The notes beneath the pieces were generated by a model that was not told the origin of the DNA, made no database searches, and worked only from the letters and a program-made list of their open reading frames with translations. The translations under genes were made by a program, and so were the position numbers. A stretch of 64,000 nucleotides of DNA from Spirochaetota bacterium. Its GTDB lineage: Bacteria > Spirochaetota > GWE2-31-10 > JAFGQB01. Location of the stretch: assembly GCA_016935915.1 (NCBI GenBank), contig JAFGQB010000009.1, forward strand, positions 99 to 64,098, in the 5' to 3' direction. Of this stretch, positions 15,926-37,669 are shown piece after piece; the stretch's first letter is position 1; every line of letters starts with the position of its first letter.

Positions 15926-16936
15926 ATGAACAATAACAGATTTTTTTATGCTGCAAGTTCTGAAGGTAGTATATCATTATATTATTTCAATCCAAAAAAT
16001 GGAGAATTAACATTCAAAGAAAAGATTATCACAGACTCAGAGCCCTCATTTTTATCGGGAACTCATGATGGAAAATATCTTTTTGTATCCTTGAGGGATG
16101 ATAATATCCATGATCTTACATCATATAAAATCGACAAAAAAAACGGCAGACTTGAAGCAGTCAACAGAATAACTTTAAAAGGGGAAAGACCAGTTTACAT
16201 TACTGTTGACAAAAGCGGCAAGTTTCTCTTTTATGCCTGTATTAAAGGCGGCATTTTTTCCGTAATAAGAATTAATAAAAACGGAATTTTGCAGGAAGAA
16301 AGTGAAATCCATAAGATATCAGATTTTGCTCATCAGATCAGGATTGATTTAAATAATAAATATGTTTACATACCATGTTTTAAAAGTGATGTAATAGGCA
16401 TGTATGTTTTTGATGAAAAAAAAGGTACTTTATCCCCCAATAATCCTGAGTGCTTTTTATGTAAAAAAAACACCGGTCCCCGTCATCTTGACTTTCACCC
16501 AAACGGCAAATGGCTATATATTTTAAATGAGTTGAGTAATACTGTTACTTTTTTTATGATTAATGATAACGGTACTTTAAAAGTAATGCAGAACATTTCG
16601 AGTTTACCTGCAGGTTTTAAAAATTTCAGCAAAACATCTGATATTCACATTGATCGATCAGCAAGATTCCTTTATGCTTCGAACAGAGGCCATGACAGCA
16701 TTGCTGTTTATGGGATTGATCGGAAGAACGGTAATTTAGAGCTTATTGATATTAAAAGAACAATGGGGAATGAGCCCATGAATTTTATCATTGATCCTTC
16801 AGGTAATTATCTTATTGTCGGAAACAGATCATCAGATGAGATAAGGGTTTTTAAAATTGATAAAAAGAGCGGATTGTTAGGTAATTGCCTTCATGTTTAC
16901 ACTCATCCTCTGCCTATTTGTCATTATTTTGTATAA
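15926..16936 (+). CDS. 6-phosphogluconolactonase-like (Pgl/YbhE 7-bladed lactonase family)
   Basis: AHQI, GPRHLDFHP, LNELSN, LYASNRGHDSI. Confidence 0.88.
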   Translation: MNNNRFFYAASSEGSISLYYFNPKNGELTFKEKIITDSEPSFLSGTHDGKYLFVSLRDDNIHDLTSYKIDKKNGRLEAVNRITLKGERPVYITVDKSGKFLFYACIKGGIFSVIRINKNGILQEESEIHKISDFAHQIRIDLNNKYVYIPCFKSDVIGMYVFDEKKGTLSPNNPECFLCKKNTGPRHLDFHPNGKWLYILNELSNTVTFFMINDNGTLKVMQNISSLPAGFKNFSKTSDIHIDRSARFLYASNRGHDSIAVYGIDRKNGNLELIDIKRTMGNEPMNFIIDPSGNYLIVGNRSSDEIRVFKIDKKSGLLGNCLHVYTHPLPICHYFV

Positions 16937-17045
16937 GATTTACGTTTATATTTCTTGTAGAAGTTGCTTTCTTTATATGTATGTATTATATAAAACTTGA
17001 TCTATCAATAAGCTGTTAATTTGAGGAATTGATTGCTAACAGTTT

Positions 17046-17200
17046 AAAAACCTGACAACTGTCAGATACAAGACTTGATAGCAGTCAGGCAAAAAACTGA
17101 CAACTGTCAGATATAAGACTTGATAGTTGTCATGTAAAAATCTTACAACTATCAGATGGAGGAGATGATAGCTGTCATGTAAAAACTTGACAATTGTCAT
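17046..17200. repeat. 45-bp tandem repeat (about 3.4 units) containing seven 12-bp palindromic boxes
   Basis: Boxes start at 17053, 17076, 17098, 17121, 17143, 17166 and 17188, with consensus TGAYA-N2-TRTCA. Confidence 0.92.
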
Positions 17201-17359
17201 CAAATTTTACATCGTTGGTAGATGTGTTTACTCATTTTTTGTAAATAATAAATACCTAAATATTGGGAAAAATAATTGAGAATAATTTGAATTTAAAAAT
17301 TATTTAATAGAAATAAAGAATCACGGTCTTCGGACAAATAAAAAGCATTATTAAATTCA

Positions 17360-17914
17360 TCAATCATATCTGTAAAACAACAGCATATTGATACCGTAGA
17401 GTCTCTTGTCATAGCAGGTCAGCCTGCCGATCTTATCTTCTAAAATGTCTTTTTTGTGCAAATGTATTACAATAAAACCATCAGGTGTGAGTAATTCGTT
17501 ATCGCTGATTAAATTTAGAAGCTTTTTCTTTTTATCCCAATTGAATGGAGGATCAAGCATAATAAAGTCATATTTCTTTTTGCAATATGCGCAAAATTTA
17601 AGCGCATCCTGAATAAAGAGGTTTGCATTCTTAAAACCTGCATTTGTCAGGTTTTTTATGATCGTATTTTTTTTATTCCAGTCATATTCTACCATATCCG
17701 CATCTTCAAGTCCTCTTGAATATGCTTCAATAGCAATATTTCCTGAACCTGTAAAAAGGTCAAGCATTTTTAAATCAGAGCAGTCACCTATGATGCTGAA
17801 CAAAGCTTCCTTCACCATTGAAGTCATGGGTCTTATAATGCCCGGGGGACATTCGATAAGTTTGTTTTTTATCCTGCCGGTTATGACTCTTGTTTGAATT
17901 TTTTTTTTCTTCAT
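17360..17914 (-). CDS. rsmD: 16S rRNA m2G966 methyltransferase
   Basis: RVITG, IRPMTSMVKEALF, LDLFTGSG, IEAYSRG, DPPF; overlaps the recG stop (ATGA). Confidence 0.88.
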   Translation of the reverse strand: MKKKKIQTRVITGRIKNKLIECPPGIIRPMTSMVKEALFSIIGDCSDLKMLDLFTGSGNIAIEAYSRGLEDADMVEYDWNKKNTIIKNLTNAGFKNANLFIQDALKFCAYCKKKYDFIMLDPPFNWDKKKKLLNLISDNELLTPDGFIVIHLHKKDILEDKIGRLTCYDKRLYGINMLLFYRYD

Positions 17915-19986
17915 GCTTCGCCTTTATTAGAGAGGTTTTGGAAAGTTTTAAGACGGTTTAAAAAGCTGATTTTTATATTGGCATTTATACTATTTGAAAT
18001 GTTCGGGTCTGTTTTAAAGAGTTCCTCGGCATCCTCACTTGCTTCCTTTAAAATGTCAATATCTTTCCTTATATCTGCAAATTTATATTCAGGCAGTCCT
18101 GACTGCTTTGAACCTAAAAATTCTCCGGGACCTCTAAGCATAAGATCTTCTTCGGCTATCTTAAATCCGTCATTTTCTTTTGTCATTATCTCCATTCTTT
18201 TCCGTCCGGTTTCAGTTAAATTATTAAAGTCAGTGATCAAAACCATATAGCCCTGTTTATTGTTTCTTCCGACCCTGCCTCTCAACTGGTGCAGTGTGCT
18301 CAAGCCGTAATTTTCAGCATTTTCAATAACTATTATATTTGCGTCAGGTACATCAATACCTACTTCCACAACTGTTGTTGCTGCCAGTACTTTGATCTTT
18401 CCGCTATGGAAATCTTTCATGATTTTGTCTTTTTCATTTGTATTTACTTTTGAATGAATGAATCCTGTTCCGAATTCTTTATATGTACTCTCAAGCTTCT
18501 TATATTCACTGAAGAGGTCCTTGTCCTCGATCTTATCAGAGAATTCTATAAGGGAATATACAAAGATCACTCTACCGTTTGATTCGCTGATCTCTTTTTT
18601 TATCCAGTCGTGCATTTTTTTTCTTCTTTCATCATTGTCATTTACCAGCCATGTTTTTACGATTTTTCTTCCCTGTATTGTCCCTTTCATAATAGTTAAA
18701 TCAAGGTCACCGTATAAACCCATTGCCAGGCTTCTTGGTATCGGTGTTGCTGTCATTAATAAAAGATCAACTGCCTCACCCTTATTTAAAAGCTGATATC
18801 TCTGTTCAACTCCGAATCTCTGCTGTTCATCTATTACAACATATCCTAAACTGTTATATATAACATCATCGCTGAACAGTGAATGAGTTCCAATAATGAG
18901 ATTTATTTCATGTTTTTTAATCTTTTCTAAAATATTATTTCGTTCTAATTTTTTAAGACTGCCTATAAGCAGGGCTGTTTTGATCTGTGTATTTTTTAAA
19001 TAACTGCTGATCACTTTGAAATGCTGTCTTGCAAGCACTTCAGTCGGCACCATTAATGCAGTCTGGCAGCCTGATTCTATTACAGAAAGCATTGTTATTA
19101 ATGCGACAATTGTCTTACCACTGCCGACATCTCCTTGAAGAAGTCTTGAAAAAACATTATCTGAAAAAATATCATTTTCAATATCATTAATTGCCTTTAG
19201 TTGATAATCGGTCAGTGTAAACGGCAGACTTTTAATAAAATTATTTTTCAAGCTGAAGTTTATTTTTTTTCTCTTTTTTTTGATTCCTTTGATCAAGGCT
19301 TTTCTTTTTAAAAGAAAAAGCCGCTGATAGAAAAATTCTTCATAAATAAAAGTCCTTTTTGCCTTTTCATAAGTCCTGAAATTATCCGGGAAATGAACAT
19401 TTTTTACTGCATCTCTTTTTTTTAAGAGATTCCTGTTTATAATTAATAATTCTGGCAATTCATCTTCTATGTCAAGTCTGTATTTTTCCAGGGCATCGAC
19501 TATTGCTTTTCTGAATAAGCTTTGATTAAAGCCTTCGGATAACGGATAAATTGGTATGATTTTACCCTTATAATTCACGGTTTCTTCTTCATATTCAAAA
19601 TTTGTTGCCTGTATTTCCTGAAAGTTAAATGCGAACTTACCCGTGATATAATAGCTTTTTCCGATTTTGAAAACATTTTGAAGGAAATTTCTGTTGAAGC
19701 ATATTAGAGCGCCGAATGTGGACCCGTCAAAAATTGTTACTTTAAGAATCTTTTTATATGATTTTCCGATGAATTTATGTTCGATTATTTTTACCTTTAC
19801 GGTTGCACTCTCCAGTCTGCATGCTTCTTTTAAGGATATGGCGGTAGTTCTGTCGGAAAAAGCTCTGGGAAAATACTTTAACAGATCACTGACGGTTTTA
19901 ATATTTATGCACAGAAGAAGTTTTGTGTAATTTCTACCGATCCCGCTTAATGAAGATACAGGGTATTCTAATTTGTCTAAAATCAA
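17911..19986 (-). CDS. recG: ATP-dependent DNA helicase RecG
   Basis: LLQGDVGSGKT, PTEVLARQH, IDEQQRFGV, MTATPIPRSL, LHQLRGRVGR, DGFKIAEEDLMLRGPGE; TTG start. Confidence 0.96.
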   Translation of the reverse strand: MILDKLEYPVSSLSGIGRNYTKLLLCINIKTVSDLLKYFPRAFSDRTTAISLKEACRLESATVKVKIIEHKFIGKSYKKILKVTIFDGSTFGALICFNRNFLQNVFKIGKSYYITGKFAFNFQEIQATNFEYEEETVNYKGKIIPIYPLSEGFNQSLFRKAIVDALEKYRLDIEDELPELLIINRNLLKKRDAVKNVHFPDNFRTYEKAKRTFIYEEFFYQRLFLLKRKALIKGIKKKRKKINFSLKNNFIKSLPFTLTDYQLKAINDIENDIFSDNVFSRLLQGDVGSGKTIVALITMLSVIESGCQTALMVPTEVLARQHFKVISSYLKNTQIKTALLIGSLKKLERNNILEKIKKHEINLIIGTHSLFSDDVIYNSLGYVVIDEQQRFGVEQRYQLLNKGEAVDLLLMTATPIPRSLAMGLYGDLDLTIMKGTIQGRKIVKTWLVNDNDERRKKMHDWIKKEISESNGRVIFVYSLIEFSDKIEDKDLFSEYKKLESTYKEFGTGFIHSKVNTNEKDKIMKDFHSGKIKVLAATTVVEVGIDVPDANIIVIENAENYGLSTLHQLRGRVGRNNKQGYMVLITDFNNLTETGRKRMEIMTKENDGFKIAEEDLMLRGPGEFLGSKQSGLPEYKFADIRKDIDILKEASEDAEELFKTDPNISNSINANIKISFLNRLKTFQNLSNKGEA

Positions 19987-36175: not shown

Positions 36176-37387
36176 ATGAATAAAAAAACAGCTTTAATCA
36201 ATTTAGTGTTCTGCTCAATAATGCACGGACTTAATCATTTCCTGTTGATTTTTTTTAAGCCCATGTACATTCAGATGTCGAACTTTTATCATCTGCGTGA
36301 GGTGGCTGATATCACAGTCAAGGCGACCATAATATATGCAGGCTACGGAAGCTCCAACTTCATATCAGGCTTTTTATCAAGAAGATATTCCAGGAAGATG
36401 ATCTTATTTATAGGAATGCTTGTTATGAGTCTGGCGGTGATGTTCATTGCTTTTATTCCTTCGGGTTCGTTCAATTTGACGGTCCTTTTAATATTTATAA
36501 TGGGTTTAAGCGGTGGAGTTTATCACCCGGCTGCAAATACATTTGCAACTGCAATGTATGAAGAAAAAAAGGGACATGCGATCGGTATGCTTTCTATCGG
36601 TTCAGCGATCGGATTTGTGATAGCTCCTTTTATAGGTGAATATCTGGGAAATAAATTGCTGGGTTTTCAATTGCTTTTTTTTATATGCGGTATTGCCGGT
36701 TTTATTTTTGCAGTTTTATTTTTCATATTTGTTGAAGATGACCTGTTAAAAACTGAAAATGTCAGACCTGATAAAGTCTCAACTTCAGGACGTTCAAAAG
36801 TTAAAATCTTTCCGTTCGCATTTTTATTGATCCTGGTCTGCATTCCGGTTACATTAAAGGAAATATCGAACTGGAGTTTTTATGAGATCACGCCGTTCTG
36901 GGTTAATTTCGGTTTTTCCAGAGGCATAACCATATCACTGATCCAGTCTATGCTGTATTTACCTTCTGTTTTTATTCAGCCGTTTGTAGGAAAGTTATGT
37001 GACAGGTTCGGTTCTGTAAAAGTTTCAGTGATAACTTTTATTCTCTGCGGGGTTGGTATTGCCTTGTTCAGCATTTCGAATATTTTTACGCTGTGGCTTG
37101 CGATGATCGTGTTCGGAGCAGGCATGGGAAGTGCCACTGTTGCTGGTGAAACCTATATGGCTGATATGACAACTGTCAAGAACAGGTCTTTGATCTACGG
37201 CATTGTTCTTTCTGCAGGTCTGGGTATAGGAGGTACTGTAAGTGGGATATCAGGCTGGGTAGTGGATATTTTCGGAAAAAAGAACATAACCGGCTACAAT
37301 CTCTGGTACATTTTTTCAGGTGTGTCAGTTGTTTTGTCAGCTTTTATTTTTATATTGATTGAGAAAATCAAAAATAAAAAAACCTGA
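36176..37387 (+). CDS. MFS transporter
   Basis: About 12 TMs; GFLSRRYSRK and GKLCDRFGS motif A; GVYHPAA. Confidence 0.9.
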   Translation: MNKKTALINLVFCSIMHGLNHFLLIFFKPMYIQMSNFYHLREVADITVKATIIYAGYGSSNFISGFLSRRYSRKMILFIGMLVMSLAVMFIAFIPSGSFNLTVLLIFIMGLSGGVYHPAANTFATAMYEEKKGHAIGMLSIGSAIGFVIAPFIGEYLGNKLLGFQLLFFICGIAGFIFAVLFFIFVEDDLLKTENVRPDKVSTSGRSKVKIFPFAFLLILVCIPVTLKEISNWSFYEITPFWVNFGFSRGITISLIQSMLYLPSVFIQPFVGKLCDRFGSVKVSVITFILCGVGIALFSISNIFTLWLAMIVFGAGMGSATVAGETYMADMTTVKNRSLIYGIVLSAGLGIGGTVSGISGWVVDIFGKKNITGYNLWYIFSGVSVVLSAFIFILIEKIKNKKT

Positions 37388-37411
37388 CAGCTTTTTTTAA
37401 AGTCTGTCAGG
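37383..37411. terminator. Hairpin overlapping the MFS stop codon (REP/terminator-like)
   Basis: CCTGACAG-N13-CTGTCAGG perfect 8-bp stem. Confidence 0.5.
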
Positions 37412-37669
37412 ATAAGGAGAACATAAAAGCACCCGCCTGGTATAAAAAGGTTTAATAAAGTATTAAATAAGCCTTAAGTAAGAGGAGAAAACTTACAAGG
37501 CAATTTAATCAATGATTTTAACTGCAATCCAGTATTATACATTTTAAAAGTCAGCATCCTTTCAATTATATTAATCGCTTGAAACAAGAAAATCATTCGA
37601 TTTTTTTTAAAATTATTAAAAATATTTTTCTGAATGGATTTTATATTATTATTAGAACGATTTGATAGG

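Follow-up and report, generated by a model that had tools for sequence, protein, structure and literature searches.

The locus described here lies on a contig (JAFGQB010000009.1, C57 in our numbering) of a metagenome-assembled genome (MAG) from the Spirochaetota (GCA_016935915.1), within a stretch of 64,000 nucleotides (positions 99 to 64,098 of the contig) that was analysed as a whole and is referred to below as the window. Between the convergent 3' ends of a lactonase gene and of rsmD, flanking genes that had been named in an earlier note on this DNA and that are confirmed by Pfam matches, the window carries a tandem array of short palindromes, which is its top-scoring array in Tandem Repeats Finder (17045-17199, period 45, 3.4 copies, 80% matches, 0% indels, score 198). 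That program bore out the indel-free 45-bp unit in about 3.4 copies which the note had described, the seven boxes that it placed in the array proved exact in coordinates, sequence and spacing, and a relaxed box scan added a degenerate eighth at 17030. The features of the locus are:

15926..16936, plus strand: lactonase gene (PF10282, E=6.9e-80), 3' end towards the array
17018..17027, no strand: AATTTGAGGA, with an inverted copy at 17197-17206; possible short terminal inverted repeat
17030..17041, no strand: box 0, degenerate, TGATTGCTAACA, 23 bp before box 1 (relaxed box scan)
17045..17199, no strand: tandem array, 45-bp unit x 3.4, the unit comprising two 12-bp boxes and two linkers (Tandem Repeats Finder)
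17053..17064, no strand: box 1, TGACAACTGTCA
17076..17087, no strand: box 2, TGATAGCAGTCA
17098..17109, no strand: box 3, TGACAACTGTCA
17121..17132, no strand: box 4, TGATAGTTGTCA
17143..17154, no strand: box 5, TTACAACTATCA, the weakest, with 3 of 6 symmetric pairs
17166..17177, no strand: box 6, TGATAGCTGTCA
17188..17199, no strand: box 7, TGACAATTGTCA, a perfect 12-bp palindrome
17209..17311, plus strand: 'tail' flank, homologous to the sequence after a 21-bp-class array on another contig (C202, 125-226)
17360..17914, minus strand: rsmD-like methyltransferase gene (PF03602, E=4.7e-37), 3' end towards the array
17911..19986, minus strand: recG, overlapped by rsmD, with RecG domains

Boxes 1 to 7 follow one another at 23, 22, 23, 22, 23 and 22 bp, and with box 0 the array counts eight. 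The 12-bp boxes are the cores of 18-bp palindromes of the form ACYTGA-N6-TCARGT, separated by gaps of only 4-5 bp, and their mean spacing of 22.5 bp amounts to 2.1 helical turns, with the dyad-symmetric boxes near integral phase. As had been noted, an A5-6 tract stands ahead of each odd box and the second linker is variable. The motif TGAYANNTRTCA occurs 7 times in the window, five of them in the array, against an expectation of 0.50 +/- 0.75, a count reached in none of 100 shuffles. A single TGACAACTGTCA at 37167-37178, inside a 403-aa open reading frame (ORF; 36176-37387), is an isolated match and probably due to chance. At the array edges, the inverted motif (AATTTGAKGA) is 10 nt long and 90% complementary, stands in AT-rich DNA and may be due to chance; a second inverted motif of 14 nt, which may likewise be fortuitous, lies further out, also in AT-rich DNA.

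The host genome (3.7 Mb, 29.8% G+C, 310 contigs, a 78%-complete MAG) contains more such arrays. A genome search retrieved a second one on contig C195 (E=3e-10), and at least seven homologous arrays with TGA-N6-TCA boxes are present, on C57 (the window), C195, C131, C26, C110, C284 and C169. The 41 boxes of six of these TGA-type arrays, a count from which C169 is left out, are spaced 22 or 23 bp apart almost without exception; hardly any variation is seen at their positions 1-3 and 10-12, and changes at the inner positions are symmetric, although mixed half-sites (TGAAC..GATCA) are tolerated. On C110 the 68-bp unit is made up of three interleaved box types, and the linkers are recognisably related from one TGA-type array to another, which makes these arrays one family by descent. 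The relaxed box scan and a genome-wide run of Tandem Repeats Finder, which together delimit the wider class, yielded about 20 further arrays of 22/23-bp or 21-bp period built on other boxes (TCATATATATGA, CCATATAATGG, GTAACGTTAC, GTAAAAAGT, TCAGCTGA and CTATATAG), and periods of 21-24 and 42-46 dominate the non-low-complexity tandem repeats of the genome. Thus, the description of the array as an orphan holds at the window locus but not genome-wide. All arrays are intergenic and flanked by ordinary, unrelated genes, no array was located within a long ORF assigned to a Pfam family, and 7 of 19 end at contig ends.

A second array class has a period of 21 bp, with GAAATG/GCAATG recurring every 21 bp over 10-16 units. 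Three such arrays (C131 22482-22800, C166 1280-1600 and C25 3860-4071; loci L007, L026 and L027) each stand upstream of one of three paralogous genes, 73% identical, whose products of 253-264 aa found no family in Pfam, NCBIfam or the protein atlas; these genes are a second family with arrays of its own. It is to this class that the tail of the window array leads, since the tail matches the sequence following the array on C202 (blastn, 72.8% identity over 103 bp, E about 1e-12) and a motif scan found its motif ACATCGTTGGTAGATGTGTTTAC (17211-17233), of the form TCGTT..AGATGTGTTTAC, again beside the 21-bp arrays of C131 and C155. A tail common to the window array and to the 21-bp class indicates that array classes share flanking modules, in the manner of the leader, repeat and tail of the BrickBuilt element discussed below.

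The array on C195 is the closest copy of that in the window, and the two align in register over about 170 bp without an indel at 74% column identity (26% divergence); box 0 aligns with an edge box of the C195 array, TGATATATATCA, and the TTTGAKGA motif also stands at the left edge of that array. Identity is concentrated in the boxes, with 70 of 96 box positions identical (73%) against 34 of 74 linker positions (46%; Fisher p=0.0005), whereas within the window array alone variable columns amount to 4 of 24 in boxes and 8 of 21 in linkers (p=0.18). The proposal that boxes and spacing are constrained while linkers drift stands for the comparison with C195, the contrast not being significant for the window array taken by itself.

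The earlier note had also suggested scanning the genome and its relatives for the boxes and comparing the region downstream of rsmD. A triple-box pattern gives 14 matches per strand in this genome and none in a reversed control, and none either in 400 other genomes of the phylum, three same-family relatives included; a double-box pattern was likewise missing from 40 relatives. In the three same-family genomes (RsmD about 60% identical) recG-rsmD is kept with another gene directly downstream, the rsmD loci of 9 relatives show no tandem repeat of the array's period, and a metagenomic contig encoding an 86%-identical RsmD (locus L176) has different downstream ORFs and no array. On this last contig the region downstream of rsmD (900-2300) contains two ORFs, one of 74 aa on the other strand and one of 355 aa that is transposase-like by eye only, and no lactonase gene. 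The relatives are not syntenic at this locus and thus offer no empty site. Contigs from three other DNA sequencing runs, which are short and of about 3x depth, do not span 16963-17195. Since the relatives' rsmD loci lack the array, it is a lineage-specific insertion at this site and not a conserved chromosomal one.

Comparing the flanks of all arrays against the genome uncovered a conserved 80-bp 'head', which precedes seven arrays of four box families (on C195, C284, C264, C20, C21 and, twice, C253) in seven strong copies (nhmmer E<=2e-14). No head was detected upstream of the window array at nhmmer E<=1, and no array was seen with both head and tail, the window copy having the tail only. From its position alone the head is promoter-like; no canonical sigma-70, sigma-54 or sigma-28 promoter could be fitted to it by eye. 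A weak copy (nhmmer E=0.00098) lies in the window itself at 37380-37630 on the minus strand, just past the stop of a 680-aa gene, and is followed by about 180 nt of unique sequence and, at 37380-37413, a bidirectional hairpin with its T-run; this element, single-copy in the genome and without an Rfam match, resembles a gene for a small RNA.

On C195 and C284 the head is followed by the array, and the array by a gene matching PF14848/PF18291 (HU-DNA_bdg/HU-HIG). The C195 product (242 aa; PF14848 E=1.6e-13, PF18291 E=2.8e-6) has no match by sequence in the PDB, and no relative in a viral collection with either a single-sequence or an alignment query. Its AlphaFold model (predicted local distance difference test score, pLDDT, 87.9) has as best PDB fold match 4FMR, over the full length (E=3e-13), with HU/IHF chains and immunoglobulin (Ig) domains next in the list. 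As modelled, it is an HU-HIG protein with an HU-like N-terminal domain and a C-terminal Ig-like domain. Six pieces of this family were found in the genome by tblastn, four of them with an assembled 5' end, and by inspection all four have an upstream phased array, each with its own palindrome:

C195 HU-HIG gene: upstream array palindrome TGACAGCTGTCA
C284 HU-HIG gene: upstream array palindromes TGAACTAGTTCA / TGATCTAGATCA
C192 HU-HIG gene: array TCAGCTGA, about 730 bp upstream, with a GIY-YIG element inserted between the two
C222 HU-HIG gene: array CTATATAG, spacing 23, 22, 23 and 23 bp, found by motif and not by Tandem Repeats Finder

As a background, automatic criteria place an array of this kind no more than 500 bp upstream in 21 of 2652 ORFs (0.8%). 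Period and dyad symmetry are kept among these genes while the array sequences diverge completely and the paralogs fall to 32% identity. The window array has no gene of its own behind it; on sequence similarity, the window copy is of the box type of the C195 paralog. The HU-HIG subfamily and the array pattern are both missing from the three same-family relatives. The GIY-YIG ORF on C192 (650-1450, locus L028), between the TCAGCTGA array and the HU-HIG gene, is bracketed by long inverted repeats and looks like a small mobile insertion. On C292 (2108-2600, locus L204) a gene for the C-terminal Ig-like half of HU-HIG only stands 35 bp behind a head-like element, with no array.

The pairing of array and gene recurs outside this genome. 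Among the 400 genomes of the phylum only one other, G013, encodes a close HU-HIG homolog (43% identity), and there a 22-bp array of 9.9 units lies 100 bp upstream of the gene, ahead of what reads by eye as a good sigma-70-like promoter; two further arrays of the same 22-bp unit (83-86% identical, 13-15 units) occupy unrelated loci. This arrangement of a master copy plus orphans is an independent replicate of the one described here. A survey of arrays upstream of PF14848/PF18291 genes covered six genomes, and in two of Bacteroidales 21/22-bp arrays lie no further than 800 bp upstream of 3 of the 7 genes with a weak PF14848 match.

Similar arrays also exist in other phyla: a pattern scan of contigs returned at least 119 stretches, in part chance or coding repeats, which show only that such arrays exist elsewhere. 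In the Bacteroidales MAG OY781105.1 four to eight TGATGCGCATCA palindromes, 22/23 bp apart, form arrays at at least seven loci (L040, L041, L053, L065, L088, L107 and L114), 5 of 7 of them, among the matches listed, between convergent housekeeping genes. Homology between loci in this MAG is limited to 90-160 bp, and thus the arrays are not the ends of large insertion sequences. The TGATGCGCATCA box is also arrayed in the Firmicute Gemmiger (L081), and box 7 of the window, TGACAATTGTCA, recurs unchanged as the arrayed box of Clostridium CAG:217 (L049).

To judge by its build, the published element closest to the window array is BrickBuilt of Porphyromonas gingivalis, presented in the sections of its report that describe it as a minisatellite or MITE (a miniature transposable element with inverted repeats) made up of 23-nt units joined head to tail without spacers, with dyad symmetry and predicted stem-loops, in about 19 dispersed, non-identical and strictly intergenic copies whose leader and tail flanks may be missing singly or together (Klein et al. 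2015, PMC4596501). According to the same sections it has no Rfam match and no BLASTn matches outside the species, and one copy adjoins an HU-type DNA-binding gene (Table 1), with no link to HU drawn there. The arrays reported here share with it the tandem units of about 23 nt without spacers (22/23-bp spacing, period 45, 0 indels), the dispersed, non-identical, intergenic copies confined to one lineage, and the dyad symmetry, predicted stem-loops and lack of an Rfam match; as to common flanks, the window copy has only the tail and seven others the head. They differ in belonging to another phylum, in the several box families that share one period and in the pairing of units as 45-bp inverted doublets; and, where BrickBuilt has terminal inverted repeats and a target-site duplication, only the 10-nt and 14-nt inverted motifs are seen here, for which chance is not excluded.

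The HU-HIG clade of the HU/IHF superfamily, in turn, is described in the relevant parts of Burroughs et al. (2017, PMC5499826) as enigmatic, with no conserved neighbours reported, and as marked by lineage-specific expansion, fast divergence and transfers to spirochaetes; 4FMR, a Bacteroides HU-plus-Ig protein, typifies it, and the word 'repeats' does not occur in the paper. The C195 gene agrees with this clade in its matches to PF14848 and PF18291 and in its predicted 4FMR-like fold, and departs from the published picture in that each paralog of this genome has its own phased palindrome array. Our literature search found no paper joining HU-HIG (PF14848/PF18291/DUF4469) with 22-bp palindromic tandem repeats in spirochaetes, and in the sole functional paper found to name PF14848 such a gene is merely listed as differentially expressed.

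Our preferred, albeit tentative, explanation is that the window array is a multi-site platform of double-stranded DNA for a dimeric protein, with the C195 HU-HIG paralog as candidate binder. It retains the cooperative platform put forward in the earlier note and adds a candidate family, the binding itself being inferred. The window array is an orphan member of a dispersed family, specific to this lineage, of 22/23-bp phased palindromes organised as minisatellite-like cassettes of the BrickBuilt type; in this genome the 'master' copies of the family sit between the promoter-like head and members of an expanded HU-HIG gene family, with one palindrome per paralog. Dimers of a sequence-specific protein, most likely the C195 paralog, would line up side by side on the 18-bp palindromes, about every two helical turns; at gene-linked arrays their occupancy could bring about autoregulation, and the orphan array of the window might serve as a landing platform that acts in trans, flanked by two convergent transcription units. 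Several features argue for a DNA platform: the invariant TGA/TCA ends of the boxes, the symmetric variation of inner positions with its tolerance of mixed half-sites, the period that stays fixed across arrays with unrelated linkers, the persistence of the box architecture while genes diverge to 32% and array sequence to nothing, and the replication of the pattern in G013. That other copies of the family sit before HU-HIG genes makes HU-HIG proteins the likeliest binders. Among known systems, tandem operators bound cooperatively by dimeric or hexameric repressors come close, such as the 18-bp ARG boxes of ArgR, palindromes 2-3 bp apart, and the lambdoid OR/OL operators. The arrays resemble them in their closely packed 18-bp dyad sites, here 4-5 bp apart with centres about two helical turns from one another. 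They differ in having 4-8 sites, and elsewhere up to 15, often away from promoters, instead of 2-3 at promoters, and in that their binder is a candidate only.

A number of observations weigh against this explanation. The window copy has no head, lies between 3' ends and is missing from the rsmD loci of relatives, and it may have no function at its locus. Strict automatic criteria pass only 2 of the 4 HU-HIG genes (C195 and C284), the C192 array being about 730 bp away behind the GIY-YIG element and that of C222 having been found by motif only, and most of the arrays in this genome (about 20) have no adjoining HU-HIG gene, though 7 of 19 end contigs. Boxes shared by a gene and its array may merely reflect joint duplication. 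Elsewhere, none of 13 HU-HIG genes in a Parabacteroides genome and none of 7 distant spirochaete homologs has an upstream array, and at 80 loci with TGA-N6-TCA arrays in other phyla a search for HU-HIG within 1.5 kb gave one weak tblastn match. In addition, the HU-HIG study argues that in 4FMR the DNA cleft is made narrower by the Ig domain, and it doubts that proteins of this clade act as sequence-specific factors (PMC5499826).

It is tempting to go one step further, with more reserve than for the platform itself, and to suppose that HU-HIG proteins at large might be sequence-specific nucleic-acid binders, each paralog equipped with private 21-23-bp arrays at its own gene and at orphan sites, forming a mobile chromatin-like or insulator system of which BrickBuilt would be the DNA half. 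If true, HU-HIG proteins and their arrays would make up a self-contained, horizontally mobile system in spirochaetes, Bacteroidota and beyond. HU-HIG proteins, present in dozens of copies in gut and oral Bacteroidota, are a large family of unknown function, and neither a function nor a mobilising protein is known for BrickBuilt-type minisatellites; a reproducible pairing of paralog and array would turn both into one directly testable hypothesis, namely that protein X binds array X, and the family described here offers the first concrete candidate targets for HU-HIG proteins. What is new in this respect is that phased palindromes of BrickBuilt-like build occur in a further phylum and are tied to HU-HIG genes.

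As the main rival to this explanation, the array could act once transcribed, as tandem intrinsic terminators or 3'-end stabilisers of the recG-rsmD transcript on the minus strand or, on the plus strand, as serial hairpins in the 3' untranslated region of the lactonase mRNA. We consider this unlikely as the main role, in spite of the following minus-strand hairpins, folded with ViennaRNA, each of which runs directly into a stretch of five or six T:

17050..17090, minus strand: box 2/box 1 hairpin, -14.6 kcal/mol, then T5; terminator-like, facing rsmD
17095..17135, minus strand: box 4/box 3 hairpin, -11.3 kcal/mol, then T6; the only terminator-like site returned by the scan lies in its inner part
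17140..17180, minus strand: box 6/box 5 hairpin, -10.7 kcal/mol, then T5

Under a strict scan rule the sole terminator-like site in 16800-17500, against 0.1 expected from shuffles, falls in the array, and from the rsmD stop up to the array no other terminator is present. The folding energy of the plus-strand RNA is -81.8 kcal/mol (z=-6.2; z=-3.4 for the minus strand), and on C253 a strong hairpin with a T-run follows two head-linked arrays, as if the array were transcribed. Against this, the closest copy, on C195, has no T-runs after its hairpins, the loops of 9-11 nt are long for intrinsic terminators, and hairpins leave unexplained the invariant TGA/TCA ends, the mixed half-sites and the fixed 22/23-bp spacing over unrelated linkers. 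Searches against Rfam (15) gave no match at or near the gathering score for the window array, the C195 locus or five other array loci; the window array drew only two microRNA models, far below their gathering scores. The two roles could coexist and, to judge from the hairpins, the array may well also end the recG-rsmD transcript alongside its putative function as a DNA platform.

The array might, on the other hand, have no role here at all, as a selfish or neutral minisatellite, that is, a BrickBuilt-like MITE copy that landed or was duplicated at this place and owes its regularity to recent duplication and common descent. Its restriction to one lineage fits such an origin, three same-family genomes and the 86%-identical metagenomic relative having no array at rsmD and the 400 other genomes of the phylum no triple-box pattern. 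So do the tail that it has in common with another array class, the short inverted motifs at its edges, for which chance is not excluded, and the box/linker contrast that is not significant within the array (p=0.18). The modularity of head, array and tail is likewise as in BrickBuilt, which, in the sections of its report on the flanks, also has tail-only copies (PMC4596501). We nevertheless find it improbable as a full account: not one indel has accumulated at 26% divergence from C195 while boxes were far better kept than linkers (p=0.0005), period and dyad symmetry persist in fully diverged arrays beside HU-HIG paralogs of down to 32% identity, and no transposase is linked to the arrays. An array resembling transposon ends, one of the possibilities raised in the earlier note, finds no support, there being no transposase nearby and only the 10-nt inverted motif at the edges. 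The array may also be an operator left behind after gene loss.

The repetitive extragenic palindromic (REP) sequences of enterobacteria and their clusters, the bacterial interspersed mosaic elements (BIMEs), consist of extragenic palindromes in alternating orientation with two alternating linkers, and have a classical link with IHF binding. The window array has the same alternation of orientation and of two linker types and is likewise extragenic between convergent genes, and it could be conceived as palindromes read as hairpins and spread by a REP-associated tyrosine (RAYT, Y1) transposase, with gyrase or IHF binding and mRNA stabilisation as side effects. The genome does have a Y1_Tnp fragment (C276, 26.6 bits), and in the Bacteroidales MAG 5 of 7 array loci, among the matches listed, are flanked by convergent genes. 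Even so, such an origin is very unlikely. REP elements occur as singletons and doublets and in hundreds of copies, whereas here there are no singletons or doublets, all 11 perfect copies of the G/C-containing boxes TGATCTAGATCA, TGAACTAGTTCA and TGACAATTGTCA lying inside arrays; units are half the size, no GTAG/CGTC tag tetranucleotide stands beside the boxes, and only 1 of 10 arrays with both flanks known in this genome lies between convergent genes. No RAYT gene is flanked by boxes: the Y1_Tnp ORF is truncated at its contig end with none in the adjoining 240 bp, in an assembly that is incomplete.

Least probable is a run of CRP/FNR-family sites. TGA-N6-TCA is the common core of CRP and FNR sites, one of which occupies 22 bp, it is kept by all six TGA-type arrays (C169 left out), the C26 box TGATCTAGATCA equals the core of the CRP consensus, and the genome has two CRP/FNR-type genes; but with 2 genes, compared with 0-11 in 20 relatives without arrays, this family shows no expansion, other array families of the same period have quite different boxes, and no array has a CRP-type gene next to it. 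With no cas, rep or par genes near any array, CRISPR, for which the units are also too short, an iteron origin and the centromere-like site once suggested for this array were dropped.

As a separate matter of assembly, more than 30 contigs terminate in a common sequence of about 86 bp (90-100% identity), for example at C58 2668-2753 and at C57 2-87, just before the window; it is a high-copy repeat that breaks the assembly.

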